A stretch of DNA of 64,000 bases from an uncultured Chloracidobacterium sp. (GTDB taxonomy: Bacteria > Acidobacteriota > Blastocatellia > Pyrinomonadales > Pyrinomonadaceae), in assembly GCA_964526245.1 (NCBI GenBank), contig CAZGLZ010000006.1, positions 2,215-66,214 of the forward strand, read 5' to 3'. Of this stretch, positions 10,801-57,710 are shown in pieces; position 1 is the first letter of the stretch; each line of letters opens with the position of its first letter. Below the pieces are notes generated by a model. It did no database searches, was not told the DNA's origin, and saw only the letters and a program-made list of their open reading frames with translations. The translations under genes and the position numbers were made by a program.

Positions 10801-11707
10801 AGAACGAGCTCAGACGTATTCAGAGCCCTTCAGAATTGTGGAAGAGAAGGTTCAACCGTTTCGAGCTACTCAAAATAGAGCGCGAAATCGGGACGTTTGG
10901 TGGGTCTACGCAGAGCATCGACCTGGATTGAATCGTGGGATTGCTCGTTTGCCATTTTGCTTCGCGGTCGGGCGCGTGACAAAACATCTGACCTTCTCGC
11001 GGGTGGCGACAAATTATGTTTTTTTGAACAACCTGTACATATTCACGACCTCACGATGGGACCTTTTTACTGTCGTCCAGAGTGCGATCCACGAAGTGTG
11101 GGCTCGGAATTATAGCATGACGTTGAAGCAGGATTTGCAGTATTCGCCATCGGACTGCTTCGAAACGTTCGCCTTTCCTGACGATCTTTGGAACGAAGAA
11201 AATGCCAAACTCGCTGAGATCGGCGAGCGTTATCACGAACACCGCAAACAGCTAATGCTGATGCTCTGGCTCGGCCTGACAAAGCTCTACAACCTTTTCC
11301 ATGATACGGAGCTATCCGTCGAAATGGTCGCCGATGTTAGCGGCAAAGACGAGGACATCGCCCGCGAAGGCTACGCTGTGCTCGTAGAACTCCGCCGCCT
11401 CCACGTCGAAATGGACAATGCCGTCCGCGACGCCTACGGCTGGCAGGACCTCGACCTCGGCCACGGCTTCCACCAGGTCGAAACCCTCCCCGAAAACGAC
11501 CGCACCCGCTACACCATCAGCCCCACCGCCCGCAAAGAAGTCCTAAAGCGTCTCCTCGCCCTAAACCACACCCGCGCCGCCGAGGAAGCAGCTCATGCCG
11601 CCGCCGCAAAACCGTTCAAAAAGAAAGGTGGCAAGAAATCGAAATCAGACCCGGCAACAGACGGCGACAACCCGCTTTTAGCGGCGGGACCGTTGTTTGA
11701 ACAATGA
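7820..11707 (+). CDS. Large gamma-class N6-adenine DNA methyltransferase (Eco57I/PglX/DrmMI-like), 1295 aa
   Basis: SAM-binding motif VADIACGSGHILL (nt ~9389-9425) and catalytic ILGNPPYLG (nt ~10181-10205). Start overlaps the SNF2 stop (ATGA). Confidence 0.85.
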   Translation: MNYPSIRIEGAILSPDILEHLVDGAKGQGPKDFGFESGTKVKDEIARAWADAQDYWRIFQRKLATVKEGTAATTETRQNWIIPLLGLLKYEVEFQKAGTEIHGRNYAISHRITNRANTPLHIVGYNDQAGLDRKSAASRMSAHALVQQYLNLSDELYGIVTNGRVVRLLRDSSRLVKQSYLEFDLDRIFTDGLFADFAILFRLLHATRLPLKAEEAAESLIEKYHQDSLDSGARIRDGLSEAVKEAILNFANGFLSNPANTRLCEAIEVGILTPDDYYRNLLRLIYRLLFLMVIEERDLVFPSDSENRERLQHFRRIYRDYYSVGRLRQLAEKRYLADKRHHDLWMALVSTFKLFEADGPGEKLGIKPLAGDLFGPRAIEEIFDARLGNDVLLGCLRSLGLYEHPDTRQMIRVNYGALNVEEFGSVYEGLLEYEPVFDLSGSTPRFGFVEGDERSRTGSHYTPDELVQPLIKHSLDYLIEDCVRSPHVSKGSSDSSPPYERGVDAEGGRGGSPTTAEQRLLDLRVADIACGSGHILLAAARRIATELATVRTGEEQPSPTAYRQALRDVIRNCIYGVDVNPLAVELCKVALWLEAHNPGEPLNFLDHHIKCGNAIVGFVSKEEVDRGVPEEAFARMPDDHADFIKVVRKKNKDERRERQRVLNFTDERRGEIANVLERWRVITAMPERSPAEIDVKKAAFENFSTQGAAYELEKLASVPVAQFFIPKVPENSSKLMTDAEFRDYWSGERRPQSQSFAAAEAVASEKRFFHWFLEFPGVMERGGFDCILGNPPYLGSQALSGNFGYPFCHFLKYEYAPAGLSDLIVYFLRRIFCLLRPSGFTAFITTNSIKDGDNRRDGLDQVLSTGGTINMAVRAIRWPGRANVVVSQLAIHKGDWIGPRLLDNREVETINAYFEDNLPEPDPVPLHPNKNRVFQGVIFLGEGFLLSTEDADALLRLDPRNHEVIYPVINNKEMNGSPDQSSTRKIINFHNWPIERAQTYSEPFRIVEEKVQPFRATQNRARNRDVWWVYAEHRPGLNRGIARLPFCFAVGRVTKHLTFSRVATNYVFLNNLYIFTTSRWDLFTVVQSAIHEVWARNYSMTLKQDLQYSPSDCFETFAFPDDLWNEENAKLAEIGERYHEHRKQLMLMLWLGLTKLYNLFHDTELSVEMVADVSGKDEDIAREGYAVLVELRRLHVEMDNAVRDAYGWQDLDLGHGFHQVETLPENDRTRYTISPTARKEVLKRLLALNHTRAAEEAAHAAAAKPFKKKGGKKSKSDPATDGDNPLLAAGPLFEQ
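9275..9365. repeat. Short palindrome-rich REP/MITE-like segment lying in frame inside the methylase ORF
   Basis: Hairpin cccctc(9306-9311)/gagggg(9321-9326) and gtgg(9348-9351)/ccac(9357-9360). The +1 frame reads PLLTKEGWTPKADGVVLP. The methylase frame reads SSPPYERGVDAEGGRGGSPTT, just upstream of motif I. Confidence 0.35.
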
Positions 11708-11717
11708 GATTAGTATG
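11468..11717 (+). repeat. Direct repeat copy A: functional 3' end of the methylase plus spacer up to the next ATG
   Basis: Shares the identical 21-mer gaaaacgaccgcacccgctac (11492-11512) with 14873-14893. Flanking similarity runs through gccctaaaccac and the GPLF-encoding tail. Confidence 0.75.
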
Positions 11718-12416
11718 AAGATAGCTGCGATTAATCACGAAACTTGGTACAAGGAACACATAAGCGTTTTCGAGGTGCCAATACTTGAATCCTACATCGA
11801 CTCTGTTGAAAAACAGGTTCAAATTGGATTTGACACATGGAAGGACAGATTGAAATCCTCAGGGCACTTTGGCGATCCTGATACGGAATATTATCAGGAG
11901 ATCAGTGCCGTTGACGGTCTTGATGATTCAACCTTTCATCTTCCCTCCATATTCGATGAGTACTTTCCTCAGCTTCAACGACAGAGTGCCCTGATCGTCC
12001 TTTATTCTTTTCTAGAACGTGAGCTACTACATCTATGCGAGCTTTGTCGTAAATCAAACAACGCTCCGCTCAAAGCAAAAGACCTTTGTAGGGACGGTAG
12101 CGACATTGCCCGCTGCCAGATGTATCTCGAAAAAGTGATAGGTTTAGGAGTTACAAGAGACGATGCAAAATGGCAGGAAATCGACCACGGAATACGAATC
12201 GTCCGCAATCAAATAGTTCACCACGAAGGCAAAGTGCCGGATACCAACTCCAGAGACTTTAACAAGCTTGAAAACCACGTTAAGCAGCAAAACAATTCGG
12301 TTTCAATAGACAAAATATCTTCATCTATCGTTCTCAACAATGGCTACCTTAAATACACACTCGATACGTTCAACGAGTTCTTTAAGACTTTGGATGATGC
12401 CTTGTCAAACCCTTGA
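11715..12416 (+). CDS. HEPN-domain protein (Rx4H), hypothetical RNase
   Basis: IRIVRNQIVHHEG with RNQIVH at nt 12204-12221. Predicted all-helical protein. ATG at 11715 is the point where homology to repeat copy B ends. The ORF track start at 11697 is TTG. Confidence 0.55.
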   Translation: MKIAAINHETWYKEHISVFEVPILESYIDSVEKQVQIGFDTWKDRLKSSGHFGDPDTEYYQEISAVDGLDDSTFHLPSIFDEYFPQLQRQSALIVLYSFLERELLHLCELCRKSNNAPLKAKDLCRDGSDIARCQMYLEKVIGLGVTRDDAKWQEIDHGIRIVRNQIVHHEGKVPDTNSRDFNKLENHVKQQNNSVSIDKISSSIVLNNGYLKYTLDTFNEFFKTLDDALSNP

Positions 12417-12599: not shown

Positions 12600-12935
12600 G
12601 TGGAACAGATTCATAATGATGACAATCGTAAATTGACGTCATCCGAAGAAAAGCTCGCTGGGATTGCGGATCGAGGCGAAGGAGAACGACGGGACGAATG
12701 GCACCTTGATCCACCGGACTCCTGCGACTATTGTCACCGAAGCCTCTCAAATTCGATCTTCTTCGTCGATGGTAAGGTGAAGGGCAGTTTTCAGTGGGGA
12801 AATATGTGTGCAGAATGTTTCTTTACCTACGGCGACGCGATTCGGTGGGGAGCGGGCCAACTCTACCAACAGGTCGGGTCGAATGAGTGGCTAATGGTCG
12901 GTGGCTTCCCGACGGACGAGCCGGAACCGTTTTAA
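12600..12935 (+). CDS. Small Cys4 (zinc-ribbon-like) protein, hypothetical
   Basis: GTG start preceded by a strong SD taggaggga (12581-12589). CDYC...(about 30 aa)...CAEC pattern. Confidence 0.5.
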   Translation: MEQIHNDDNRKLTSSEEKLAGIADRGEGERRDEWHLDPPDSCDYCHRSLSNSIFFVDGKVKGSFQWGNMCAECFFTYGDAIRWGAGQLYQQVGSNEWLMVGGFPTDEPEPF

Positions 12936-12985
12936 CCCATATAGATCCTCGCCCGGAAGCCCGAGAGATTTTCATTAACTACTCT

Positions 12986-14539
12986 ATGTCTGAACCTGTA
13001 ATTGACCCAATTGATTTTCCACAGTCTGAACTTGTTATCGGGCTCGTCGCCCCAGTTGGTACCGACACGCGGTTTATTGTCGATACGATTTCCCAGCGTC
13101 TCGATCGATTCAATTACACGCGTGAACCTTTGAAGTTAAGCGAGTATCTGAAGACCCTAGACTTGGGTGTTCAGATCGATGAAAATACAGCTTTCCGACG
13201 CGTCGTCACGCTCATGGATGCCGGCGACGCATTGCGAAAAAAAGTTGGCGGCGGAGGTGAGAATATTGACGGTTCGGGGGACGCTCTTGCTCGAATTGCC
13301 GTTTCTGAGATTCACAAACGGAGGCCAATCGATACAGCGTCAAACGAAAAGAACGAATCACGCATCGCAAGACCCAAAACAGCTTATATTCTTGACTCGC
13401 TTAAGCATCCAGACGAAATTGTTTTGTTGCGACGAATTTATGGAGATGGGTTCCTCTTGATTAGTATCTCTTCCTCTCGACAGACCAGGAAAGAGAATTT
13501 GGAAAGACGCGGTATGTCAGGTGACGAAGCCGATACCTTAATCAGCCGTGATGAGAATGAGAGCGACCCTTTGGGACAGAAAACTCGAGACGCATTTCAC
13601 TTAGCTGACGCATTTATCGACGCCAATAATCTTGAAACTAGTCGTTCGCAGATTGAGAGAATACTCGACATTCTGTTCGGTGCTCGGTATAAAACGCCAA
13701 CGTTTGCGGAATACGCAATGTTCCTTGCTTTTGCATCAGCCTTTCGATCAGCAGATCTTTCAAGGCAGGTTGGCGCGGCAATTGCATCCAAAACAAATGA
13801 AATTCTTGCGGTCGGTTGTAATGACGTCCCTCGGTTCGGAGGAGGCTTATACTCTAGTGACGACGCCGAAGATCACCGGGACCATAAGCTCGGCGTTGAC
13901 CCGAATGTTCAGAAGCGGAACGAGATCTTCAGCAACATCGCGCAAATGCTGAAGGATAAATATCCAATGGCAGTTGACGGAAAGTCTGTGGAGGAGTTGA
14001 CGCAGGCGGTGAAAAGGGATTTGAAGGCAAGCGTTTTGTCGAGTCTTACTGAGTTTGGACGAACGGTTCATGCCGAAATGGATGCGATTGTAAGTTGTGC
14101 TAGGAGCGGAATCAGTGTTCGCGGGGGTACGCTATATACAACAACATTTCCGTGCCATAATTGTGCCCGTCATATCATTGCTGCTGGTATCGATACTGTT
14201 GTCTACGTTGAACCGTATCCTAAGAGCCAGGCTGGAGAATTGCATGAGGATTCGATAGACTTGGAAACGCAGTCTGCGAATAAGGTAACTTTTAAGCCAT
14301 TTGTTGGAATCGGATCTCGGCGCTTCATGGACTTGTTTTCGATGGGAATGAGTTCAGGCTATCCAATTGAAAGAAAGTCCAACGAATCCGGTGAAAAATT
14401 AGATTGGACGCCTGAGGCCGGTCGCCTAAGGGTTCCAATGTTACCCACGTCATATATCGAACGCGAACGCCTATCAATACAGAAACTGGACAAACTTGAG
14501 GAGGAAAGTGATGTCGATAAAGAAACGGAAGGACACTGA
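12986..14539 (+). CDS. AvcD/DcdV-like anti-phage deoxycytidylate/dCTP deaminase (N-terminal P-loop-kinase-like domain plus C-terminal CMP/dCMP zinc deaminase)
   Basis: Deaminase zinc motifs HAEMDAI (nt ~14069) and PCHNCARHI (nt ~14150). N-terminal LVIGLVAPVGTD glycine-rich loop. Size ~517 aa from ATG 12986; an alternative GTG at 12887 gives 550 aa. Confidence 0.7.
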   Translation: MSEPVIDPIDFPQSELVIGLVAPVGTDTRFIVDTISQRLDRFNYTREPLKLSEYLKTLDLGVQIDENTAFRRVVTLMDAGDALRKKVGGGGENIDGSGDALARIAVSEIHKRRPIDTASNEKNESRIARPKTAYILDSLKHPDEIVLLRRIYGDGFLLISISSSRQTRKENLERRGMSGDEADTLISRDENESDPLGQKTRDAFHLADAFIDANNLETSRSQIERILDILFGARYKTPTFAEYAMFLAFASAFRSADLSRQVGAAIASKTNEILAVGCNDVPRFGGGLYSSDDAEDHRDHKLGVDPNVQKRNEIFSNIAQMLKDKYPMAVDGKSVEELTQAVKRDLKASVLSSLTEFGRTVHAEMDAIVSCARSGISVRGGTLYTTTFPCHNCARHIIAAGIDTVVYVEPYPKSQAGELHEDSIDLETQSANKVTFKPFVGIGSRRFMDLFSMGMSSGYPIERKSNESGEKLDWTPEAGRLRVPMLPTSYIERERLSIQKLDKLEEESDVDKETEGH

Positions 14540-14779: not shown

Positions 14780-15101
14780 CGCTGGTTTAACTTATTCCAA
14801 TCTCAAGATCTGCGACGCTGTTGGATCGGCCCGAGCCTTTGCTTTTGTTTCCAGGAGGCTCAAGCCCTCCGTGAAAACGACCGCACCCGCTACTCCATCA
14901 GCTCCAATGTCCCCCCAAAAGTCCTAAAACACCTCCCAGCCCTAAACCACCGACGCGCCGCCGAAGAAGCCGCCACCGGCAAAACCAAGAAGCCAAAAGC
15001 CAAGAAATCAAAAACAAAGAGCCAAACCCCGAAACCAGGCACCGACGACGACCCGCCCCCCCCCTCCTAGCCTCCGGTCCTTTGTTTAAGCATGATGAAT
15101 A
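14780..15101 (+). pseudogene. Decayed 3' remnant of a second DrmMI-like methylase (direct repeat copy B)
   Basis: Reads FQEAQALRENDRTRYSIS..VLKHLPALNHRRAAEEAA against FHQVETLPENDRTRYTIS..VLKRLLALNHTRAAEEAA in the intact gene. Upstream CDAVGS and the tail SGPLFKHDE* lie in other frames, indicating frameshifts. There is no upstream ORF body. Confidence 0.7.
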
Positions 15102-15103
15102 GT

Positions 15104-15739
15104 ATGTGGTGTAACAATTTGAGACAAAGCAATTTGAGCGTTGCGAACTATAACAACCTCCATCCCGAAGGACAGAGGTTAATTCGCAGTTGGTTTGACC
15201 GCTCCTGGCAATCGTACGAAGGGAATGACGATGCTTTCGAAGCATTCATTTTTTTGTGGATTTCGTTCAATGGTTGGGCGACGTGTATTACCGGTCTATT
15301 TCGAGACGCAAGTATTATCGATTCTGTCGCTAACAACCAGGTAATTGCGACTGAGTTCATCCGGTTAGTCCGCAACGACCGTGAGTTCGCTGAAAACGTC
15401 AGAGAACTTTGCGACATGCTGCCGATTTTTGATCCGCGAAGACTGCCGAATAGAAACTGGGGATTGTTTTCGCCTGATCAAGAAGGTCGCCGGCGGCAAA
15501 TACAACAATATCTGCAAACTGGGACGAAATCTTTTAACCCCCCGTGCTGGAAAGATCACGTAGACGCCGGTGGTCGAATGCCCACGGATTGGCCGCATGT
15601 CTTAAAGGCGATCTACCAGATCCGCTGTAACCTCTTCCACGGGCAGAAAACCGCTTTTCAAGAACTTGATAGGAGACTGGTCGATCTCGCCTTCAAGATT
15701 CTTCACCGGTTCGTGTCCGACGGTGGCTACCTTAACTAA
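15104..15739 (+). CDS. Second, unrelated HEPN-like protein (Rx4H)
   Basis: IYQIRCNLFHGQK with RCNLFH at nt 15623-15640. Occupies the same position relative to the methylase tail remnant as the first HEPN gene. Confidence 0.5.
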   Translation: MWCNNLRQSNLSVANYNNLHPEGQRLIRSWFDRSWQSYEGNDDAFEAFIFLWISFNGWATCITGLFRDASIIDSVANNQVIATEFIRLVRNDREFAENVRELCDMLPIFDPRRLPNRNWGLFSPDQEGRRRQIQQYLQTGTKSFNPPCWKDHVDAGGRMPTDWPHVLKAIYQIRCNLFHGQKTAFQELDRRLVDLAFKILHRFVSDGGYLN

Positions 15740-15811
15740 AGGATAACCGATACTGAGGCATGGCAAACTCGTCGAATCAGCAAAGCTTTGTCGGTGATAT
15801 GAAGAACTTTC

Positions 15812-17821
15812 ATGATTGAAATTGGTGACATACTGAACGGGATTCGCGAAGAGATTCGTGCAACGCCGGACTATGTCGCGTTTACGATAAAACGGAGTAT
15901 CCGCGAGGGCTCAATCTGGAAGATCATTCTGTCCTCGGATGAAAAGAGCCTAAATGAACTAGATGAAGCACTGGAAGGGGCACTCGTCTGGTGGCCAGGC
16001 AATCCGCCCGGAACGGCCGAGGTCCTTTCGGTAGTTTCGGAAGAGTCGCAACTGAACCTCCGATTTGCGACCCAAACGCCCCCTGAGAACGGAAAGATTC
16101 TCCGCGTTTACCTACCGCAGTATCTAAATAAGCTCGAAGAACTTTGGTCGGATGACATTTGGGCAAATCGGTGCTCCGAATGGCTTAAACGGGTAAGGGC
16201 CACGAACGCGAAAGATGACGTTATTTCCCTGAAGACCTCCAGCTTTCGGTGGCTCCGAGCGTGTCAGAAGAGGGCGTTTGCCCTTCCTGCTTTCAAGGTG
16301 AGTTTCCTGCATGGCCCCCCAGGCACGGGAAAGACGCGAACACTTGGGGCGTTGGTGGCTCAGTTTCTAAGTACGTTCCAAAACGCGCGTGTTCTTTTGC
16401 TTTCGACGACGAATGTCGCAGTCGATGAAGCGATCACTGCTGTCGATTCGGCGTTGCTCGAAGCGCCCGCGTTGAATGGCGGCCCGCGAATTCGGATGAA
16501 CGAGTGCAAGCGGATTGGGAACCAATTTGTTGCTACAAAATACAAGGGACGCCAACACTTGCTTCCAAAGCAGGAACCCGAAATCCTCGAGCAACTAATC
16601 CTCTTAGAGGCCTCACGGCCACGCGAAGAAGATGTCCAAGCCTACGCCACTTGGAAGGAAAGGACCGAAACTTTACGCGCTCAAATGCGTTCCAAGGCAA
16701 TCAACACATTCAGGCATTCGCGGCTTATCGCGATGACGACAACGCTTGCGGTTTATAGCTTCGATGACCTTCGCGAGCACTACCCGGCTGATCTGATCGT
16801 ATTCGATGAATCGAGCCAAGTTGGGCTTGCCCACGCTCTGGCACTTGCCCCGCTCGGAAAGCGGGCTCTTTTTACAGGGGATCCCAATCAGCTTGCCCCG
16901 ATATGTCGGTCGAAGGTGCAGGATTCTGCGGAGTGGCTTGGTCAATCCATGTTCTCCCTCCAAAATGACTTTGAGGAGGCAACGTGTTTCCTTGACGAAC
17001 AGTCCCGAATGACAGAGCCGATCTGTCATGTTGTAAGCAAAACGTTTTATCAAGGAAGGCTAAAGGTGGCTTCGGGCTGCGACACGAAATGGAAACTAGC
17101 GCGGGACGTTTCGTCCTCGCATGCCGAGAAAAATGCCGTAAGCATCCACCGTGTCAAAAAAGAGGGCCAGTATTCTAAGAAGTACGGCGGCTATATAAGG
17201 TATGAATCGGCAGAGCTGATCTCCGCTCTTGTTGGTCGGCTATCAAGTGAACAAGATGCAGCCGATATTCTTGTCTTGACCCCATTTCGCGCTCAGCGTC
17301 GGTTGATAAAAACTTTCTTAAAGAATGGAACGATTAGGGGTGTCAGAGTCAGTACCGTGCACCGTGCCCAGGGAAGCGAATGTCACACGGTTATTTTTGA
17401 CCCCGTCTCAGGAAGCAATAATTTTCTAAATACTGAAGATGCACCTCGGCTAATTAACGTAGCACTGAGTCGAGCAAAGGCCAGACTTGTCGTATTCCTG
17501 TCACCTGACGACTTGGTGAACCCTACACTACAGAAGTTCAATGCGGTAGCTGCGATTCTACCCGGCATTATGCAGAATGACGGCTCGAGGGTGCCGAGAA
17601 TTCAGCAGCATCGCCATATTTCAAGAATACTCGACGAGAACTTTCCGCAGAACGCAATCAACAAAGAAATAACAATACCTTCGAAGAATGGCCTGATGTT
17701 TGGGCGAATTTTGGAGGTTTCCTCCGATGGCGAGAGCTTCAAAATGCAAGTGTACGAAACCGGGGAAGTTAAGAAATTTATCACAGAATTTGTTCGGAAA
17801 AATGCGAAAGGACGTATATAA
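15812..17821 (+). CDS. Superfamily 1 Upf1/DNA2-like helicase (AAA_11/AAA_12 type, COG1112-like)
   Basis: FLHGPPGTGKT, LLLSTTNVAVDE, LIVFDESSQ, FTGDPNQL, VSTVHRAQGSE, NVALSRAK. The first ~150 aa and last ~80 aa are unassigned. Confidence 0.85.
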   Translation: MIEIGDILNGIREEIRATPDYVAFTIKRSIREGSIWKIILSSDEKSLNELDEALEGALVWWPGNPPGTAEVLSVVSEESQLNLRFATQTPPENGKILRVYLPQYLNKLEELWSDDIWANRCSEWLKRVRATNAKDDVISLKTSSFRWLRACQKRAFALPAFKVSFLHGPPGTGKTRTLGALVAQFLSTFQNARVLLLSTTNVAVDEAITAVDSALLEAPALNGGPRIRMNECKRIGNQFVATKYKGRQHLLPKQEPEILEQLILLEASRPREEDVQAYATWKERTETLRAQMRSKAINTFRHSRLIAMTTTLAVYSFDDLREHYPADLIVFDESSQVGLAHALALAPLGKRALFTGDPNQLAPICRSKVQDSAEWLGQSMFSLQNDFEEATCFLDEQSRMTEPICHVVSKTFYQGRLKVASGCDTKWKLARDVSSSHAEKNAVSIHRVKKEGQYSKKYGGYIRYESAELISALVGRLSSEQDAADILVLTPFRAQRRLIKTFLKNGTIRGVRVSTVHRAQGSECHTVIFDPVSGSNNFLNTEDAPRLINVALSRAKARLVVFLSPDDLVNPTLQKFNAVAAILPGIMQNDGSRVPRIQQHRHISRILDENFPQNAINKEITIPSKNGLMFGRILEVSSDGESFKMQVYETGEVKKFITEFVRKNAKGRI

Positions 17822-18189
17822 CAATAAAACACAATCATCGCTATCCGGTAAAACATCTTTCAGTTCGCGTACCGTGGCACGACAACGCATGGAATGGCAC
17901 CGTTTGTATCGATCCGAAATCGAATAGTGCCTGTCTCGCGCTAAAGAGCTGCTCTCTGACCCGCGATGACGAAAAGGAACAGAGTCTTTGCGGAAAGAAA
18001 ATTGAGAATTTGGGACAAAGCGATTTTCCGGCTTGCCTAAAAGAAAGCGGCGCCATGATGGCCAATTTCGCTTTTAATAAGAGCGTAAACCATCCCTACG
18101 TGCTCACCTCGGACATGGCAGCTTACATCTTTCCGGTTTTAGGGAACATTGGTAGTGCCTCTAAGAAGACCATACCTTCAAGCAGTTAG
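17773..18189 (+). pseudogene. Start-less open frame encoding ..HLSVRVPWHDNAWNGTVCIDPKSNSACLALKSC..; likely an N-terminal remnant of a larger gene
   Basis: Read by hand. Frame is open from 17773 to the stop at 18187-18189 with no ATG/GTG/TTG before the conserved-looking RVPWHDNAWNG block. Absent from the ORF track. Confidence 0.3.
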
Positions 18190-18241
18190 CAGGTCGTCGA
18201 GATCAATCTAAGCTAATCCGATCGCAACCGGTCCTGCTTCG

Positions 18242-18496
18242 TCATGAAAGATCGAGTTCGGAATCATCGTCGATAAGGAGATCCGTGCTTACGCCGGCAA
18301 GCCGAGCATACTTCAGAAGCAGTGGATACGAAGGTTCGCGAGTTCCTCGTTCAAATGCCGAGATCGTACTGCGAACCACTTCCTCTTCAACCCCGAGCCT
18401 TTCGATCAACCCGTCTTGAGAAAGTCCGAGCGACAGTCGGATCTGCCTTAGCTTCCTGGCCAAATGCTTCGGTTTCGGCCGAGAGCGTGTTCCCAT
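18242..18496 (-). CDS. XRE-family helix-turn-helix transcriptional regulator
   Basis: LRQIRLSLGLSQDGLIERLGV....ISAFERGTREPS is the typical HTH_3 pattern. Confidence 0.8.
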   Translation of the reverse strand: MGTRSRPKPKHLARKLRQIRLSLGLSQDGLIERLGVEEEVVRSTISAFERGTREPSYPLLLKYARLAGVSTDLLIDDDSELDLS

Positions 18497-18518
18497 TAGA
18501 AGTTACCTCCTAATGGGA
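18491..18518. promoter_or_regulatory. Perfect 9-bp inverted repeat spanning the XRE start codon and SD
   Basis: tcccattag (18491-18499) and ctaatggga (18510-18518), 10-nt spacer containing the SD (aggaggt on the minus strand). Confidence 0.35.
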
Positions 18519-18753: not shown

Positions 18754-19272
18754 ATGCTAGGTATTGAATTTTTGTCGCCGTTGTATTTGATCGTGCTTGC
18801 GCTTTACTTCCTAACGTCATCGATCAAGATGTTTGATATTCGAATGACTCAAGCTAAGAACGGAGCGTGGGGAGAAGACGCTCGACAGGAAGCGCAGAGC
18901 CTGACACTGCCCGGATGGGTCGGCGCAGTCTTTTACCTTGATTTCCTTCTTGGTGGGCTCCTCCTCCTTTTTAATTGGAAGGCCACTCTTGTCGTTTGGA
19001 TTGTCCGCTTTGTCCTCAAAGTCCTTCCGGTACTAGAAACGGTCGGAAATCTGCTTATGTTTCCGTTTCGGCCCAAACCATTAGACCGGGAAAGAGAAGC
19101 TAGAGATCTCGAGCGAGTCCTTCGAGATCTAGCGGAACGAGAGACCAGAGGGGATACCTTTGCGGAGGTACATCGAAGAATGGCGGACATGCTGGCTCAA
19201 GAGGCTGATAGGGAACGAGATGCGAAAAGGGGTGGAACAGCTCGGAATTTCAACCGAGAAAAGGAGAATTAA
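18754..19272 (+). CDS. Membrane protein (about 3 TM) with highly charged C-terminal tail, hypothetical
   Basis: Hydrophobic stretches LSPLYLIVLALYFL, WVGAVFYLDFLLGGLLLLF and LVVWIVRFVLKVL, then a D/E/R-rich tail. Confidence 0.5.
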   Translation: MLGIEFLSPLYLIVLALYFLTSSIKMFDIRMTQAKNGAWGEDARQEAQSLTLPGWVGAVFYLDFLLGGLLLLFNWKATLVVWIVRFVLKVLPVLETVGNLLMFPFRPKPLDREREARDLERVLRDLAERETRGDTFAEVHRRMADMLAQEADRERDAKRGGTARNFNREKEN

Positions 19273-19433: not shown

Positions 19434-19434
19434 G

Positions 19435-19473
19435 GCCCGTGTATATCAGCAGATGTACACGGGCTTTTTGTTT
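19435..19473 (+). terminator. Canonical rho-independent terminator
   Basis: gcccgtgta (19435-19443) / tacacgggc (19456-19464) followed by tttttgttt. Confidence 0.65.
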
Positions 19474-19527: not shown

Positions 19528-20754
19528 ATGAAGAAGCAAAGGAAAACAGTCTACGTAGATATGGACAACGTCCTGGTGGATTTCCCGTCCGGCATAGCTA
19601 GGCTAAGCGACGAAGATCGCATCGAATATGAGGGACGATATGACGACTGCCCCGGAATCTTCGCCTTGATGGAACCGGTTCCGGGAGCGGTCGAAGGTTT
19701 CCGGAGCGTTGCCGAACGTTTCGACACGTACATTCTGTCGACCGCCCCATGGGCTAACTCCTCGGCGTGGATGCACAAGGCCGAATGGGTGCACAAGCAC
19801 TTCGGAACCGTCGAAGGAACACCCGCATACAAGCGACTGATCATCAGCCATCACAAGAATCTCAACCGCGGCCACTATCTGATCGATGATCGGACAAAGA
19901 ACGGAGCCTCGGAGTTCGAAGGCGAACATATTCTGTTTGGATCCGAACAGTTTCCCGACTGGAAAACGGTCGTCGAATATTTGATTCAGGCCGAAAGGCC
20001 GGTCGCCGAGAATCGCGACAGATTCTTCCAACCTTTCCCGGAACATCATAATGGGACTTATAAGGTGGTTCCGATCGAAAACCTTATTCCCACAAAAACT
20101 AACCCGGACAAGTCTGTTGAGAACGCTCTCACGCACATCCGCGGACTCGACTCAGGTAACGATGGAGAACACCCTCGTAAACCACTCGACGTACTGGATA
20201 ACGGCGACGGAAGATACTCCATAGTCGACGGAAACGCTACGCATGCAGCCGCACAAATTCTTGAGTGGAGAGAACTGCCGGTGCGTGTAATGGAAAACAC
20301 TCCCGTATTGGACAGGGCCATCCAGATCGCCGCACAGGTCCATGCGGGACAGACCGATAAAGCCGGTGCTCCTTACCTTCTACATCCGATTCGGTTGATG
20401 ATGAAGATGAAATCCGACGCCGCCAAGATCGTCGCAGTGCTGCACGATGTCATTGAGGACTGTTGGCCGAAAGGTAGCTGGACATTCGAACGGCTCAGAA
20501 GCGAGGGTTTTTCCGAAGCCGTCGTTGAAGCACTCAAATGCGTTACAAAGCTGCATGAGAATGAGGACTACGATGAGTTCATTGACCGGTCAATGAGTAA
20601 CGCGATTGCACGCGAAGTAAAACTGGCCGATCTCGAAGACAACATGAACATGCTACGAATGAGCGAGTTGCGACCGAAGGATCTTGAACGGCTCGCAAAG
20701 TACCACCGCTCGTGGCACAGACTATCCGCTGCCGGCGAAGGAGTAAATCTATGA
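19528..20754 (+). CDS. Three-domain fusion: NT5C-type 5'(3')-deoxyribonucleotidase (HAD), ParB/Srx-like domain, and RelA/SpoT-type HD (small alarmone hydrolase-like) domain
   Basis: VYVDMDNVLVDF (DxDxV HAD motif) and the LIDDR region. YSIVDGNATHAAAQILEWRELPVRV is ParB-N-like. AAQVHAGQTDKAGAPYLLHP...VAVLHDVIED...KLADLEDNM is the HD_4 pattern. Confidence 0.7.
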   Translation: MKKQRKTVYVDMDNVLVDFPSGIARLSDEDRIEYEGRYDDCPGIFALMEPVPGAVEGFRSVAERFDTYILSTAPWANSSAWMHKAEWVHKHFGTVEGTPAYKRLIISHHKNLNRGHYLIDDRTKNGASEFEGEHILFGSEQFPDWKTVVEYLIQAERPVAENRDRFFQPFPEHHNGTYKVVPIENLIPTKTNPDKSVENALTHIRGLDSGNDGEHPRKPLDVLDNGDGRYSIVDGNATHAAAQILEWRELPVRVMENTPVLDRAIQIAAQVHAGQTDKAGAPYLLHPIRLMMKMKSDAAKIVAVLHDVIEDCWPKGSWTFERLRSEGFSEAVVEALKCVTKLHENEDYDEFIDRSMSNAIAREVKLADLEDNMNMLRMSELRPKDLERLAKYHRSWHRLSAAGEGVNL

Positions 20755-21551
20755 CAATGCCAATAGATCTAATACTTGTTCGCCACGGACACAGCGAAGG
20801 GAATCTGGCCGTGAGTAGGTCCAAGAAAGGAGACGATAGTCTGTATACTCCCGATTTTCGAGAACGTCCGGGACATCGTTGGAGGCTGACGGCCGAGGGA
20901 CAAGAGCAAGCAGCAACCGCCGGCAAATGGATACTCGACAACATAGGAGTTCAGTTCGATCGATACTACGCGTCACCCTACGTGCGAACTCAGGAAACGG
21001 CCGCTTTGCTCGATCTTCCCGGTGCCGAGTGGCGGCTCGACCAGCGACTTCGCGAACGCGACTGGGGCGAGATAGGATCGGTTCCGATACCGGAACAGGC
21101 CAGTCTCTATCCTCGAAACATAGTCCTACAGAAAACAGATGCCCTTTACTGGCGGCCACCTGGTGGTGAGTCGATAGCGGATGCTCGCATGCGTGTCCGG
21201 ACCTTCTTCGACACGCTGCACCGCGAGTGCGAAGGCCAATCCGTCGTCGTCGTAACGCACGGCGACATTATCTCAGCCGTGAGAGGAGCTATCGAATATC
21301 TAAGCGATGAGGAATGGCTGGCGTTCGACCGTGACGAATCGAAGCGGATCCTGAATTGCCATATCTATCACTATTCCCGACGCGACCCGTCCACCGGCGA
21401 GGTCGGGAAATATCTGAGCTGGCGGCGTGCTGTCTGCCCTACCGACACCGGTATTGACACGGGCTGGGAAACGATCACCCGCAAGAGATTCAGTAACGCA
21501 GAGCTGCTCGAACGCGTTAGCCGCGTCGAGCCAACCGTGGAGGTGCGATGA
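20751..21551 (+). CDS. Histidine phosphatase superfamily (phosphoglycerate-mutase-like) protein
   Basis: LILVRHGHSEGN (RHG motif) and VVVVTHGDII. ATG 20751 forms an ATGA overlap with the upstream stop. Confidence 0.8.
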   Translation: MTMPIDLILVRHGHSEGNLAVSRSKKGDDSLYTPDFRERPGHRWRLTAEGQEQAATAGKWILDNIGVQFDRYYASPYVRTQETAALLDLPGAEWRLDQRLRERDWGEIGSVPIPEQASLYPRNIVLQKTDALYWRPPGGESIADARMRVRTFFDTLHRECEGQSVVVVTHGDIISAVRGAIEYLSDEEWLAFDRDESKRILNCHIYHYSRRDPSTGEVGKYLSWRRAVCPTDTGIDTGWETITRKRFSNAELLERVSRVEPTVEVR

Positions 21552-22870
21552 TCATCCCCGACCCAATAAAGAAGACGGTCAAGATACCGATAAGGATCGT
21601 CGATGGCCAGGTCCGTTACTTCTACGGCGGCGAGCTCCCGAAGCTCAAAAACGTAGTTGGCGACCTCGTCATTCCCGCCTTTGCTCTCCTTGATCAAGAA
21701 CAGGCAAAAGAACTTTCCCACGAAGACGTCTCCGAAATGCTGCCTGCCGGTTCGGAGTTGATGATCAACGTTAGGGTCGATACCTACTCCGAAGGGGTAC
21801 TGACGGAATTGCGGGATAGCTCGGCAGACCTTCCTGGTTTTGCCCCAAAGGAAGGTTTTGTAAGGTTTTGTTTAGACGAACCTTTATATCTGTGGCATCG
21901 CGGGACCAAAACGAGTCAGCTTAACCCGTGCAAAGGCCATTTTGTCGACTTGGATGGAGAGGCAACAAGCCTTAATCACGCATACACGATCGCTTCTAAG
22001 AAATTCGAGACGAAGAGGACGTCGAACACCGGGAACGTCTTCAAGCATGTTTATTACAAAAGCAAGCACGGATGGGAACCGCTTGAGTGGCTTCGCGAAA
22101 GGCTCGACGCACAATTTGAACAAAGGTACCTCAGGTCCGAAAATGCAGAGATCGGACCGCCCGAAGGTGCTCGCGGTTTGTTTCCAAAAGTCGAAGAATT
22201 TCCCGATGTGGAAGTTGAGAAAGTCCCGGAAACGGAAACCGAACCACACATCAATCAACGCTTTCCTGATGATTCCACCATTAAGACGTTTGACGAATAT
22301 ATGGCTGAAGGATGCTATCACTATGATCAAACATACTGGCGATACAACATAAGCGGCGAGCTCAGAACGATCCCCCTTCGAATTCGCATGAAGGATTTTC
22401 GGTTGTCAAAAAGTCAGAAAAGGGTTCTGAGAATTAACGCGGATCTTGACCTCCAAAAGCTGCCATTGAATGTGACGAAGGATGGTGAAGAATGCAAGTT
22501 GTTTAAGCTCCACAACGTCCGGTTCGGGGAACATGCCCCGAAAAAGGTAAACCTCCCCCTGGGAGAACGGAATAGGAAATTCTGTGTTTTAGACGACGGC
22601 AAGCTTATCGCAGCGAGCTTTTTTGAAATGGGGGCCAACGCCTCACACGGCTATTACTGCATTTTCGACCCCTCCATCGAATGGCGAAGCCTCGGCATTT
22701 TCACAATGCTTAAAGAGATCGAATATGCCAGAGAACAAGCAAACGAGTTTTATTACCTCGGCTATGCTTTTGATAAGCCGACTCTCTATGATTACAAAAA
22801 ACGCTTCCACGGACTCGAGAGCTACGACTGGAAAACCGGAGAATGGGTCGACTTCAAAAGATCAGTCTAG
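21548..22870 (+). CDS. Protein with unassigned N-terminal ~260 aa and C-terminal Bpt/ATE-type aminoacyl-tRNA-protein transferase domain
   Basis: FRLSKSQKRVLR and YCIFDPSIEWRSLGIFTMLKEIEYAREQANEFYYLGYAFDKPTLYDYKKRFHGLESYDWKTGEWV match the conserved Bpt/ATE_C pattern (SxG..., YxYLGYxI..., xYKxxFxPxE). ATGA overlap with the upstream gene. Confidence 0.6.
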   Translation: MIIPDPIKKTVKIPIRIVDGQVRYFYGGELPKLKNVVGDLVIPAFALLDQEQAKELSHEDVSEMLPAGSELMINVRVDTYSEGVLTELRDSSADLPGFAPKEGFVRFCLDEPLYLWHRGTKTSQLNPCKGHFVDLDGEATSLNHAYTIASKKFETKRTSNTGNVFKHVYYKSKHGWEPLEWLRERLDAQFEQRYLRSENAEIGPPEGARGLFPKVEEFPDVEVEKVPETETEPHINQRFPDDSTIKTFDEYMAEGCYHYDQTYWRYNISGELRTIPLRIRMKDFRLSKSQKRVLRINADLDLQKLPLNVTKDGEECKLFKLHNVRFGEHAPKKVNLPLGERNRKFCVLDDGKLIAASFFEMGANASHGYYCIFDPSIEWRSLGIFTMLKEIEYAREQANEFYYLGYAFDKPTLYDYKKRFHGLESYDWKTGEWVDFKRSV

Positions 22871-22920
22871 CGATCAATCCGGTAGTTCATGCAAAGACAT
22901 CCTTACTCGGCGACTCTGTG

Positions 22921-22948
22921 CTCCGCCTGAGGAGGGTTCAGGCGGGAG
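22921..22948. terminator. Hairpin between convergent genes (no clear U-tract)
   Basis: ctccgcctga / tcaggcgggag with one bulge and a 7-nt loop. Confidence 0.3.
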
Positions 22949-22953
22949 AGAGT

Positions 22954-25900
22954 CTATCGGACAAACGCATTCGGCAGCGGTCTATCGCCGGTGGTGCCGA
23001 ATTGAAGGATGAGCGGCCCTCCCGTTGATCTCAACGCGAACCAGTTCGAGTTCGATGGCCTGAAGACCGCTGCGTCGATCTTCCCGTCGCCATCATAATC
23101 GCCCGGTGCCGGAAGATCGCCATTGGCTCCCCACGGGAAAGCGTAGAAACTCGAGTCCTCGCTGCGAAGCACGTACCATTCACCGGTCGAAGGCCGGAAG
23201 TATGCCAGGTCGGCCTTGCCGTCGCCGGTGTAATCGCCCGGCACGGTCAGGTCGGTCGCCGAGCCGAACGCGAATGCACGGTTGGCTCCGTCGCTCGATC
23301 TCAGATACCACCACTCGCCGCCGCCCGAGCCGCCCGTTGGACGGAAGATCGCCACGTCGGCCTTGCCGTCGCCGTCGTAATCGGCCGGGACGGGCCTGTC
23401 GCCCGCAGTTCCGAACGGCGTCGCCGCAACCTGCCCATCCGACGAACGCAGCGTGAACCACGTGTTCGTCGAAGGCCTGTAAACCGTCGCGTCCGACTTC
23501 CCGTCCCCGTCAAAATCCGCCGGCGAAGGCACGTCGCCCGCCGCCCCGAACGGGAACGCAAAGAACGTCGAATCCTCCGACCTCAACACGAACCACTCGC
23601 CCGAGGCCGGCCGCCAGAAAGCAAGGTCCGTCTTCCCGTCGCCCGTGAAATCCGCCGGCACGATCGTGTCCGTCGCCTCACCAAAAGCAAACGCCCGATT
23701 CCCACCATCCGACGACCTCAAATACCACCACTCCGATCCACTTCCACCAACCGGCCGAAACACCGAGATGTCCGTCTTTCCATCACCATCAAAATCAATC
23801 CCCGCTTTGGGTCTCACCAAAAATACATACGCGTTTATTCCTCCCAACATCGGCGATGATGCAAGAGCAGAGCCAGCTTTTGTATCTCGCTTGCCGTTTC
23901 CCGAAGGATCATCGGCAATGGGGTTGACCGAGGTCGCATCAGTTCCGTCCGTTGCGTAGAAATAGATAATATGGATGCCTGGCCTCAAATTAGAGGTGAT
24001 CGCCTTCGCGGTTAGTGTGGTCGCCGTGCTGGCGGTGTTCGAAGCTCTTGTCCACATTCCGTTAGTGGAATTCAGCTGGAAGTAAATATTCCGAGGCTGA
24101 GGCGCGGTCGGAGAGTATGTTGAAGAGGCAAATAACTCGAAATGCGGGTTCGGATGATTCGCTATGTTTCCAGGGAGGGGCGTGATGCTGGTATTCAGAG
24201 GAATCGAGTTTGTGGGAACAGGGGTAATAACGGTTAAATTGTCGCTCCCTTGATTAGTAACATAGACCCTATTAGTAATTGGATTTACCGCGACTGAAGA
24301 TGGGTTATCAGCCGAAGGAATAAATGTCCTTGAGTTATTCGTTCCATCGATCGCGGAAACCGTCCCTGCGACAGCTAATGAGAAATTCGCTACATAGATC
24401 TTATTATTTGATAGGTTAACAGCGACCGCCAGTGGATTCACACCTCCTTGAATGTTTGATGTTGAATTGTTCGTCCCGTTGATTACGGTCACGTTACCAC
24501 CCGAGTTTGCGACATAGATCCTATTGGACAAAGGGTTAACCGCCACACCGTCTGGAGAGGTACCTACTGGAATTGTCGTAACTGCCTTACTGGCTCCATC
24601 GATAAGCGTAACTGTGTTGCTGTCCCGATTGGTCACATAGATCCTGTTTGTCGAGTCATTAACAGCAATGCCCTCGGGGCCGTTGCCCACGGCAATCGAA
24701 GTCGTCGAATTCGTATAACCGTTAATAACGGTGACGTTATTGCTATTCCGGTTGGTCACATAGATCTCGTTGGTCACGGAATTGACTGCGATAGCATTGG
24801 GCCCGATTCCTGCTGGAACGTTGGTCGCCGAGTTGCTTGAACCGTCGATTACTGTCACGTTGTTGCTGTTATTATTCGCCACATAAATTTTATTCGTCAC
24901 TGGATTGACAACTATTGCTTCAGGAAAAGATCCGGCAGCAACCGTTGTTGTAGAATTGTCCGTCCCGTCAATCACAGTAACGTTGTTACTTTTATTGGCT
25001 ACATAAATTAAGTTGGTTATAGGATTGACTGCGATCGCCACCGGGCCAGTACCGTTTATTACGGAAGTTGACGAATTGTTCGCACCATCGATCACAGTGA
25101 CGCTTCCTGAGCCTGTTCCGCCGGAGCAAGCAGATCCGCAATTTGCGACATAGATTTTGTTTGTTACGGGATTGATCGCGACGGCTGATGGTCTTGAACC
25201 TGTAGTGACAAAAGCTGTCGTATTATACGAGCCGTCAATCACAGTCACACTAGCACTATCTCTGTTCGCTGAATATATCTTGTTTGTATTCGGATTTACA
25301 GCTAGATCGATCGGCGACGAACCTGCAGTTACCGTCGATTGGGAATTGTCGATACCATTGATTACTGACACACTCGCCCCGCCGAAGTTGGCCACATAGA
25401 CTTTATTCGTAAACGAGTTAATTGCCACAGAGGTTGGCGAGGAACCAGACGGAACCGTACCCGTGGAGTTATCAACCCCGTTTATCACAGTGACATTGTT
25501 GCTCGATTGATTGGCTACGTAGATCTTATTTGTCACGGAATTAACGGCTAACGCAACTGGTTGTGATCCCGTCGTTATTGATGCAACTGAGTTATCCACG
25601 CCGTTTATAACCTTAACGACGCTCTCACCCTGAATTGAGACATAAATCATGTTTGTCACAAAGTTGATCGCTATTCCCCGTGGATTAAAACCAATATTGA
25701 ATGTATTTGTCGCATTACTGGTGCCGTCAATAACGGTTACGCTGCCACTGAAATTGTTGACGACGTATATCAAGTTGGTAACTGGATTGACTGCGATCGC
25801 TGCGGGCCCCATGCCGACCGCTACTGTTGTAGTGGTATGGTCGTCTCCGTTTATAACGGTTACACTATTGCTCCCGAGACTGGTGTTGGCCACATAGATC

Positions 25901-26346
25901 TTATTGGTCACCGAATTTATCGCCAGGGCGCTAGGTTCGGCCCCTACTGAAATCGTCATGGTCGAATTGTCCGCTCCATCGATAACGGTGACACTTGCAC
26001 CACCTTCATTCGCAACATAAATCCGATTCGTTGTTGGGTTGATCGCCAGCGAATTGGGACCAACGCCCGTAGCAATCGATGTTGTAGAGTTGTTTGTACC
26101 GTCTATAACCGACACGTTGTTCGCCGATCTGTTTGCGACATAAATCCGGTTTGTCAGCGGATTGACAGCAACGGCAGCAGGGCCACCACCAACTGGAATA
26201 TCTCCAATTGAGGTGTCGGCCTGCACGATCGTTTCGATAAAGTGGAAGTTGATGATCTGGCCAGTCATCACTAAAACCAGAAGCAAGACAAATCGAGACG
26301 TCTTTTTAAGCAATCCCGACGCGCTCGAAGGCTTAACCAATTTCAT
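22954..26346 (-). CDS. Secreted surface protein: about 16 YVTN-type beta-propeller repeats plus 6 C-terminal FG-GAP/VCBS-like repeats
   Basis: N-terminal signal/TM LLLVLVMTGQIINF. Repeated N[KR]IYVAN..S..VTVIDG..NS. C-terminal DFDGDGKTDISVFRP-type repeats. Confidence 0.8.
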   Translation of the reverse strand: MKLVKPSSASGLLKKTSRFVLLLVLVMTGQIINFHFIETIVQADTSIGDIPVGGGPAAVAVNPLTNRIYVANRSANNVSVIDGTNNSTTSIATGVGPNSLAINPTTNRIYVANEGGASVTVIDGADNSTMTISVGAEPSALAINSVTNKIYVANTSLGSNSVTVINGDDHTTTTVAVGMGPAAIAVNPVTNLIYVVNNFSGSVTVIDGTSNATNTFNIGFNPRGIAINFVTNMIYVSIQGESVVKVINGVDNSVASITTGSQPVALAVNSVTNKIYVANQSSNNVTVINGVDNSTGTVPSGSSPTSVAINSFTNKVYVANFGGASVSVINGIDNSQSTVTAGSSPIDLAVNPNTNKIYSANRDSASVTVIDGSYNTTAFVTTGSRPSAVAINPVTNKIYVANCGSACSGGTGSGSVTVIDGANNSSTSVINGTGPVAIAVNPITNLIYVANKSNNVTVIDGTDNSTTTVAAGSFPEAIVVNPVTNKIYVANNNSNNVTVIDGSSNSATNVPAGIGPNAIAVNSVTNEIYVTNRNSNNVTVINGYTNSTTSIAVGNGPEGIAVNDSTNRIYVTNRDSNTVTLIDGASKAVTTIPVGTSPDGVAVNPLSNRIYVANSGGNVTVINGTNNSTSNIQGGVNPLAVAVNLSNNKIYVANFSLAVAGTVSAIDGTNNSRTFIPSADNPSSVAVNPITNRVYVTNQGSDNLTVITPVPTNSIPLNTSITPLPGNIANHPNPHFELFASSTYSPTAPQPRNIYFQLNSTNGMWTRASNTASTATTLTAKAITSNLRPGIHIIYFYATDGTDATSVNPIADDPSGNGKRDTKAGSALASSPMLGGINAYVFLVRPKAGIDFDGDGKTDISVFRPVGGSGSEWWYLRSSDGGNRAFAFGEATDTIVPADFTGDGKTDLAFWRPASGEWFVLRSEDSTFFAFPFGAAGDVPSPADFDGDGKSDATVYRPSTNTWFTLRSSDGQVAATPFGTAGDRPVPADYDGDGKADVAIFRPTGGSGGGEWWYLRSSDGANRAFAFGSATDLTVPGDYTGDGKADLAYFRPSTGEWYVLRSEDSSFYAFPWGANGDLPAPGDYDGDGKIDAAVFRPSNSNWFALRSTGGPLILQFGTTGDRPLPNAFVR
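24225..26190 (-). repeat. Coding tandem repeat, about 129-bp period (YVTN blades)
   Basis: 16 recognisable IYV[AT]N...VTVI[DN]G units in the translation. Confidence 0.7.
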
Positions 26347-57624: not shown

Positions 57625-57710
57625 GGAGGGGTAGCCTAATTGGTAAGGCAGTAGTCTTGAAAACTACCGCGGGAAACCGCTTGCAGGTTCGAGTCCTGTC
57701 CCCTCCGCCA
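57625..57710 (+). tRNA. tRNA-Ser (anticodon TGA)
   Basis: Acceptor GGAGGGG/CCCCTCC. Anticodon stem GTAGT/ACTAC with loop CTTGAAA. Long variable arm CGCGG-GAAA-CCGC. T-arm GCAGG-TTCGAGT-CCTGT. Encoded CCA. Confidence 0.9.

Follow-up and report, generated by a model that had tools for sequence, protein, structure and literature searches.

The stretch analysed here, hereafter the window, comprises 64,000 nucleotides of a contig from an uncultured Chloracidobacterium sp. (CAZGLZ010000006.1, positions 2,215 to 66,214 of the forward strand). Its gene at 21548-22870 encodes a 440-amino-acid (aa) protein in which an uncharacterised N-terminal domain (N-dom) is fused to a core of the Bpt/ATE aminoacyl-tRNA-protein transferase type. 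Coordinates are positions in the 64-kb window, residue numbers are those of the 440-aa fusion protein unless stated otherwise, and L and P numbers designate loci and proteins of relatives. The reading frame (440 codons, plus strand) runs from an ATG at 21548 to a TGA at 22868-22870; it is intact, and no long open reading frame (ORF) competes with it. The fusion gene, its phosphohydrolase partners, and a divergent regulator are referred to as the cassette, and the features of this region are as follows.

18242-18496, minus strand: XRE-type helix-turn-helix (HTH) regulator of 84 aa, divergent from the cassette operon; syntenic with L001, with homologues upstream of the fusion in L001, L175, and L178 (Pfam HTH_3/HTH_31).
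18754-19272, plus strand: predicted membrane protein of 172 aa with hydrophobic segments, in a variable slot and probably outside the cassette.
19434-19465, plus strand: terminator-like hairpin (14-bp stem and T run) that splits the 172-aa gene from the three-gene operon.
19528-20754, plus strand: NT5C 5'(3')-nucleotidase (about aa 1-160 of its product, DMDNV) fused to an Aph1-family HD domain (aa 258-399, HDVIED); Pfam NT5C E=4e-14, HD_4.
20757-21551, plus strand: histidine phosphatase of 264 aa (His_Phos_1, Pfam E=3e-30) with RHG and THG motifs.
21548-22141, plus strand: N-dom of the fusion (aa 1-198), an uncharacterised alpha+beta domain with a lineage-specific H117/N160 swap; AlphaFold2 (AF2) predicted local distance difference test (pLDDT) 85.8, predicted template modelling score (pTM) 0.75.
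22142-22279, plus strand: linker (aa 199-244), acidic (isoelectric point 4.2), disordered (pLDDT ~30), of variable length and unalignable among homologues.
22280-22870, plus strand: Bpt/ATE-type core (aa 245-440) and stop codon, with Pfam, NCBIfam, PDB, and Foldseek matches.

The motifs that a first-pass annotation of this DNA had quoted were all found in the fusion: FRLSKSQKRVLR at aa 284-295, YCIFDP....SLG at aa 370-383, FYYLGYAF......YDYKKRFHGLE at 401-424, GEW at 431-433, and CYHYDQ at 256-261. Its description of the protein as a homologue of Bpt/ATE whose N-terminal half is novel also holds: the core matches ATE models, and N-dom matches no database model. The Cys-rich ATE_N region is missing, as had been claimed, and the fusion has no N-terminal Cys cluster; the core retains the C-terminal half of ATE_N. 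The idea that N-dom is itself a divergent ATE_N was ruled out, since the ATE_N remnant is already located at aa 245-300.

Pfam ATE_C, which has a GNAT-type fold, matches aa 343-425 (E=2.4e-16), and each of the seven NCBIfam arginyltransferase models covers aa ~245-437 with its positions ~49-246. Scores of the fusion on these models are 50-81 bits against cut-offs of 170-358 (best 80.8 versus 170), which places it below equivalog level; the canonical Bpts P0091 and P0092 reach 291 and 374 bits. The PDB ATE1 match has E about 4e-6 by sequence and E=1e-21 by profile. A Foldseek search with the full-length AF2 model (18 full-length homologues, pLDDT 71) disclosed human, K. lactis, and yeast ATE1 (E=2e-10 to 1e-5, best probability 1.00), followed by the aminoacyl-tRNA transferases Sba18/Sbb17, A-PGS/MprF (aaPGS), and FemX (E 3e-5 to 2e-4). 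The latter three, with non-protein acceptors, share the superfamily fold and set a precedent for a change of acceptor class, but they resemble the fusion far less than ATE1 does, and none carries N-dom or has phosphohydrolase partners.

Residues of the core were mapped onto K. lactis Ate1 (klAte1) with a phmmer alignment, a profile alignment, and an hmmalign table of 102 sequences, and their roles were taken from the klAte1 crystal structure (PMC9351520). The key positions are Y257, the helix with K288/R295, D374, the donor-pocket residues T386/E390/Y402, and the catalytic pair Y416-K417. The pair corresponds to klAte1 Y303-K304 (FemX K305 equivalent) and is invariant across the fusions and the short forms described below. 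In the donor pocket, G368/T386/E390/Y402 of the fusion stand against S255/S273/E277/Y289 in Ate1 and A/A/Q/L in Leu-specific Bpt; T386/E390/Y402 are therefore closer to the ATE1 Arg pocket than to the hydrophobic pocket of Bpt. Y257 occupies the position of klAte1 R80, a residue thought to read Asp/Glu N-termini and whose R80E mutant has no activity (PMC9351520). Every 440-aa fusion has Y or F at this position and every 546-aa fusion has I, whereas R is found in 76/76 short paralogues and in P0091/P0092. The klAte1 Cys cluster (C23, C26, C95, C96) is without counterpart, as the residues before model position ~45 are missing and the CC position is non-Cys; the Cys4 metal site is missing from the short acidobacterial forms too.

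Common to the fusion and Bpt/ATE1 are the GNAT-type ATE_C fold, the motifs SLG and YYLGY, the catalytic pair Tyr-Lys, and a basic helix presumed to bind tRNA; members of this family bind the tRNA acceptor end (PMC9351520). The fusion differs in having no Cys4 site, none of the first ~45 Bpt residues, and Tyr in place of the acidic-reading Arg, and in the addition of the 198-aa N-dom and a disordered linker. Because the pocket contains Glu and Tyr (E390, Y402), a basic donor is suggested, probably Arg or another basic residue. Loss of the R80 equivalent makes a classical Asp/Glu N-degron acceptor unlikely. By these alignments, the core probably still moves an amino acid from tRNA, but not onto the classical acidic N-terminus.

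The nearest relatives of the core are Cys-less Bpt-like proteins of ~220-250 aa with 40-47% identity, from metagenome-assembled genomes labelled Pyrinomonadaceae, Chloracidobacterium sp., or Blastocatellia. These short forms (e.g., P0039, P0055) share with the fusion the Cys-less layout, the Glu/Tyr donor pocket, and sub-cut-off NCBIfam scores; they differ in retaining the R80-equivalent Arg, in having no N-dom, and in their MsrQ-MsrP-Bpt locus. They are also about 100-fold commoner, with at least 2,594 clusters (E<=1e-30) versus 27 fusion clusters. Our scan of 185,579 species genomes yielded 339 loci that encode a relative, and among the best 80 of these 339, which were examined, four were fusions. 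In a neighbour-joining tree of the core (213 aligned columns), the 440-type and 546-type fusions formed clades with 97% and 100% bootstrap, respectively, and all fusions grouped jointly with 85%. Identity is 42-44% between fusion and short form, compared with a mean of 58% among short forms. The fusions therefore split from the short forms, and the grouping with housekeeping Bpt that would have spoken for an ordinary enzyme was not seen.

The genomic setting of the two groups differs as well. The short forms have a conserved MsrQ-MsrP-Bpt locus, accompanied by MsrB, AhpC, and YggX-like genes, to which the fusion contexts bear no relation. In 30 of 52 informative loci (L017-L093), the short Bpt-like gene lies directly 3' of the genes for cytochrome b561-like MsrQ and the molybdopterin oxidoreductase MsrP, and MsrB, peroxiredoxin, and Fe(2+)-trafficking protein genes are close by; this context hints that N-terminal aminoacylation is linked to oxidative protein damage. 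Of the two, it is the short form that looks like the housekeeping orthologue. Since it is the short form that occupies the MsrPQ core locus, the outcome that the first-pass annotation had named as speaking against its proposal, a housekeeping enzyme that merely carries an extension, is not what we found, although fusion and short form could not be shown together in one genome; its view that this is no ordinary housekeeping enzyme agrees with the separate clade, the rarity, and the loss of the acidic-N-terminus-reading Arg that all 76 short forms keep. Our tentative reading, which we hold at a little under even chance, is that a Cys-less Bpt/ATE-like transferase is near-universal in Pyrinomonadaceae-type Acidobacteriota and that the fusion is its accessory, neofunctionalised paralogue.

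A second fusion subtype measures 536-552 aa and contains an extra middle domain of ~100 aa between N-dom and the core, and P0028 (322 aa) combines N-dom with the same middle domain and has no transferase; the proteins considered here were P0022-P0027, P0028, and P0060, and the loci L032 and L178.

To describe the N-dom family, a profile was searched against 1.84 billion representatives, with clusters defined at 50% identity. The family comprises 1,053 representative clusters (401 at E<=1e-30), nearly all of them stand-alone proteins of 180-230 aa in which the domain starts at residue 1; the window's N-dom matches the family profile across the whole ~195-aa domain (hmmsearch E=2e-78). No profile match was found among PDB sequences, nor a model in Pfam, NCBIfam, PADLOC, or PHROGs, and Foldseek disclosed no relative in PDB (best E 0.2) or BFVD; the AF2 model of N-dom alone, built with 19 diverse homologues, is a confident one. 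Ten C-terminal extensions of longer N-dom proteins were scanned and contained no Pfam domain. Assignments of N-dom as an ADP-ribosyltransferase (from L-R-G-T, S-x-N, and E motifs), a 2H phosphoesterase, or a HEPN protein were rejected on the Foldseek result (best E 0.2, TM<0.25) and on a misfitting order of secondary structures.

The invariant residues of the family are all present in the fusion: R118, K121, S141, N143, S150, E154, R157, G162, N163, and R183. Judged from this conservation, the polar ones (all except G162) suggest a ligand-binding or active site. The His of the R-x-S-H-T-G-N motif occurs in 217 of 232 stand-alone members, and the fusions have Asn160 instead (29/29). Fusions with Asn160 always carry His117, a position that is hydrophobic in stand-alone members. 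We considered this 'migrating histidine' as an independent covariation and discarded it, since it comes from a single lineage only and hence gives no independent support.

Contexts of stand-alone N-dom genes were collected from 74 metagenome loci and several assembly loci. In 11 loci the gene immediately follows a PglX/type-IIG-like methylase gene encoded on that strand as well, and in several of these a PLD-helicase gene (PADLOC PDLC02193, 1,479 bits) sits just 5' of the methylase. Other sites are after hsdM-hsdS, after GmrSD, beside PDC-S68 and DUF2130 genes, and 5' of an OLD-type ATPase and UvrD helicase pair (GajA/GajB-like, Gabija-like). Because stand-alone genes recur in restriction and defence loci, N-dom is a defence-island-associated family that is not yet catalogued. 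Annotated plasmid and phage records gave one weak match, on a Calothrix plasmid, with neighbours that are all hypothetical. A general link between N-dom and phosphatases, prompted by a protein tyrosine phosphatase (PTP) gene beside the stand-alone gene in L007, was dropped: the 74 other loci contained no His_Phos, HD, NT5C, or PTP homologue.

The fusion gene is closely tied to its upstream partners. The histidine phosphatase and fusion genes overlap in an ATGA at 21548-21551 (start/stop), preceded by GAGGTG, and the ATG of the histidine phosphatase at 20757 lies two bases past the NT5C-HD stop. This start, and not the GTG at 20712 of the ORF list, is supported by direct reading and by the L001 orthologue, which is 96% identical from M16 onward. 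The translational coupling to phosphatases proposed in the first-pass annotation is therefore borne out, although 'phosphatases' was a loose label for the coupled hydrolases; more exactly, they are an Aph1-family (p)ppApp hydrolase fused to NT5C, and a His_Phos_1 protein. The HD domain aligns over 142 residues with PDB 7SMG, '(p)ppApp hydrolase' (121.7 bits, E=3.7e-34), and the NT5C part matches human 5'(3')-deoxyribonucleotidases at about 1e-8.

Aph1 is an adenosine 3'-pyrophosphohydrolase that provides immunity against a phage-associated (p)ppApp synthetase toxin of the Tas1/Apk type (PMC10083569). The HD domain shares with Aph1 (7SMG) the HDxxED motif and five of the six residues of the Aph1 signature (D24, R96, D116, R119, K133, Y134), namely D277, R354, R377, K391, and Y392; D116 is replaced by N374. 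In the Aph1 study, specificity was broadened by the double mutant D24R/R119A, not by a change at D116 (PMC10083569). The window differs from the Aph1 system in that HD is fused to NT5C and has a histidine phosphatase and an aminoacyl-tRNA transferase as linked partners, and no (p)ppApp synthetase or Tis1-like gene lies nearby. HD-only orthologues, without NT5C, occur in L001 and L004. No tRNA gene or Rfam element was found near the cassette; the sole tRNA gene in the window, tRNA-Ser(TGA), is far away at 57625-57710. The predicted 172-aa membrane protein has no family match (Pfam, PADLOC, NCBIfam, PHROGs) and no homologue in the other fusion loci.

Comparison with the closest genome (L001, 86% protein identity) revealed DNA synteny over 18110-18515 (88.7%; the XRE regulator) and over 20626-23675, a block that runs from the end of the HD gene through the histidine phosphatase and the fusion into the start of a convergent FG-GAP gene. 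Across 11 distinct fusion contexts, HD hydrolase genes occur in six (with a fragment in a seventh), histidine phosphatase in six, NT5C in three, and XRE in four. NT5C is fused to HD in the window, and separate and downstream in both 546-type loci. The histidine phosphatase lies directly 5' of the fusion in six of the eight 440-type contexts, and 8 of the 10 informative contexts have at least one phosphohydrolase next to the fusion. The partner genes accompany both fusion subtypes, in varying order. The conserved unit is an XRE regulator, an Aph-type HD hydrolase, a histidine phosphatase, and the fusion; it is patchy and independent, and often borders variable islands.

Five of the 11 contexts have defence or restriction-modification (RM) genes no more than 10 kb away, and one more (L176) has an integrase gene. 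The neighbours are Zorya in L001, type I RM and an Hhe-like protein in L175, an Hhe-like protein in L178, and type III RM in L032; in L177 the fusion sits among lipid genes, pta, and clpB. The upstream 18 kb of the window are clearly defensive in content and hold a helicase/SNF2/MmeI-type methylase system, a dCTP deaminase, and an SF1 helicase. The earlier placement of the gene 'inside a defence island' is thus correct for this surrounding, but not in the sense that the cassette is a fixed component of such an island, as its neighbours vary and four relatives have it beside metH.

As to the surrounding genes, positions 1-12416 encode a four-gene restriction-like system whose mix fits no single named system cleanly: a 1,655-aa DEAD/MZB helicase (DruE/DrmA-like; best PADLOC match DruE, 268 bits), a 952-aa SNF2 protein (DpdE/DrmD-like; DpdE model, 599 bits), a 1,295-aa Eco57I/MmeI-type methylase with an MmeI target recognition domain, and an overlapping 239-aa protein with an R-N-Q-I-V-H (HEPN Rx4H) motif. 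Elsewhere, stand-alone N-dom genes fill the 'after the methylase' slot that the 239-aa gene occupies here. An anti-phage dCTP deaminase follows at 12887-14539 (NCBIfam NF041025, 476.7 bits, cut-off 400; PADLOC dCTPase E=1e-166). At 15092-17821, an unannotated 215-aa protein with an R-C-N-L-F-H (Rx4H, HEPN-like) motif precedes a 669-aa SF1 helicase that resembles the C-terminal helicase of Mokosh MkoA (174 bits); the two may form a two-gene defence module. Downstream, a large NHL/FG-GAP beta-propeller gene (22954-26346, minus strand) is convergent with the fusion and syntenic in L001, and a paralogous FG-GAP fragment lies about 20 kb off (44202-45623, minus strand). In L175, a SocA_Panacea antitoxin-domain gene comes right after the fusion in place of the FG-GAP gene. 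The segment 26489-31645, syntenic with L175, encodes SbcB (exonuclease I), a 160-aa HTH/sigma-r4-like protein, and a patatin-like phospholipase.

Taken from its sequence features, the fusion is best described as a neofunctionalised accessory transferase of the Cys-less Bpt/ATE-like family, likely conflict-related, an explanation that we favour while giving it somewhat less than an even chance. The fusion would move an amino acid that is probably basic, such as Arg, off aminoacyl-tRNA, and N-dom would pick a new acceptor that is not an Asp/Glu N-terminus. The cassette would act under conflict or toxin stress that involves adenosine 3'-(pyro)phosphorylated species. These could be (p)ppApp from invading toxins or tRNA pyrophosphorylated at A76, and the partner hydrolases would clear them. 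Small alarmone hydrolases (SAH) can strip from the tRNA CCA end the pyrophosphate that toxSAS enzymes add (bioRxiv 10.1101/2021.04.30.441581), and A76 as the source would tie the partner hydrolases to the tRNA 3' end bound by the Bpt core. Candidate modes are protein tagging, tRNA-end surveillance, and small-molecule aminoacylation, among which we make no choice, and the consequence for the acceptor may be degradation, inactivation, or signalling. A more far-reaching version appears rather unlikely to us: the cassette would be a new bacterial conflict system in which a non-canonical acceptor selected by N-dom (a toxin, a phage protein, or a nucleotide-linked amine) is aminoacylated, probably arginylated, while the hydrolases dismantle adenosine 3'-(pyro)phosphates, and, as a separate matter, stand-alone N-dom would be an unrecognised component of restriction-type islands or a single-gene system within them.

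Several observations weigh against a conflict-related accessory transferase. In four more distant relatives (L002, L004/L015, L006/L016, L014), the fusion lies directly upstream of metH among core genes, with no defence genes, a placement as compatible with a physiological role as with a conflict role. The fusion, His_Phos, and NT5C-HD each match none of the families of PADLOC-DB 2.0, the defence catalogue used, and N-dom is nearly missing from viral contigs (1 locus among 2.9 million). As the family-invariant His160 is Asn in the fusions, their N-dom may have lost the activity of the stand-alone proteins. Since stand-alone N-dom has no phosphohydrolase neighbours, the nucleotide link belongs to the fusion and not to N-dom as such. 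The presence of fusion and short form in one assembly could not be shown from the best 80 of the 339 loci, NCBI accession proximity, or IPM28_/JO053_ locus tags. The case for the function is made from sequence, context, and predicted structure, with the donor pocket read solely from the alignment to klAte1.

Some of these points bear directly on the rival explanations. The metH placement kept in four divergent relatives, the intact catalytic residues, and the second bpt that could not be shown in the same genome are what one would expect of a housekeeping N-degron Bpt with a clade-specific N-terminal extension, which would deliver Asp/Glu-N-terminal proteins to ClpS/ClpAP. We regard this as very improbable: no fusion retains the acidic-pocket Arg that is essential in klAte1 (R80, PMC9351520), whereas every short form does; the fusions are a distinct clade about 100-fold rarer; and a conserved core synteny of its own marks the short form, while the window's subclade sits in variable islands. 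At the other end stands the idea of the first-pass annotation, a dedicated anti-phage effector that upon infection would attach a destabilising residue to a protein of the phage or the host and so commit it to degradation. The N-dom relatives embedded in defence loci, the five different defence or RM systems that the cassette adjoins among relatives, and the divergent XRE regulator are consistent with it. It nevertheless seems unlikely, given that the cassette contains no ClpS/ClpA or other N-recognin and is not in PADLOC, that half of the contexts are non-defence, and that our full-text literature search found nothing linking Bpt/ATE to phage defence.

Two further possibilities dispense with a protein acceptor. 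The core and N-dom could bind the tRNA 3' end for surveillance or repair of the acceptor end, with HD, NT5C, and the histidine phosphatase clearing A76 (pyro)phosphates left by toxSAS-like toxins and with no protein-tagging purpose. Stand-alone N-dom occurs in RM loci, which are known to hold tRNA-directed backup effectors such as PrrC, and all three partners are able to attack phosphoryl groups on nucleotides. The adenosine 3'-pyrophosphohydrolase activity of Aph1 (PMC10083569), the SAH enzymes that restore aminoacylation of CCA-pyrophosphorylated tRNA (bioRxiv 10.1101/2021.04.30.441581), and the binding of the tRNA acceptor end by Bpt/ATE enzymes (PMC9351520) are also in agreement. A mere binder, however, would not need the aminoacyl-transfer residues (Y416-K417 and the donor pocket), which are strictly conserved; the cassette has no ligase, kinase, or CCA-adding enzyme, no toxSAS gene lies nearby, and N-dom has no detectable RNA-binding fold and is not notably basic. 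We hold this explanation as doubtful as the anti-phage effector. Aminoacylation of a nucleoside or nucleotide amine held by N-dom, which would make or destroy a signal or an antiviral nucleoside while the phosphohydrolases prepare or recycle the acceptor, has a low probability in our estimate. It is compatible with the small-molecule and nucleotide-linked aminoacylators of the superfamily (Sba18/Sbb17 and FemX are among the Foldseek matches), with the three nucleotide phosphohydrolases linked to the fusion, and with loss of the protein-N-terminus-reading Arg, which fits a change of acceptor class. Against it, other genes for biosynthesis, export, or self-resistance are missing from the cassette, no nucleotide-binding fold could be recognised in N-dom (Foldseek against PDB and BFVD), and stand-alone N-dom is without phosphohydrolase neighbours. 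An accessory transferase re-aimed at a new acceptor thus remains the explanation we prefer.

To our knowledge, bacterial aminoacyl-tRNA-protein transferases have been described solely as housekeeping N-degron enzymes, and the literature search disclosed no paper connecting them to toxin conflicts or conflict systems either. The fusion, the cassette, and the N-dom family all appear to be undescribed, while the chemistry of the fusion most likely stays that of the known enzyme class. The locus can be seen as a natural experiment in which this chemistry has been re-aimed threefold, as the substrate-reading Arg is gone, a recognition module has been added, and the gene is wired to (p)ppApp-type hydrolases. 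The N-dom family, with more than 1,000 clusters and members in PglX/PLD-helicase, type I RM, Gabija-like, and GmrSD loci, is a candidate entry for defence-gene catalogues. The acceptor of the fusion, if found, would reveal a new use of charged tRNA beyond translation.

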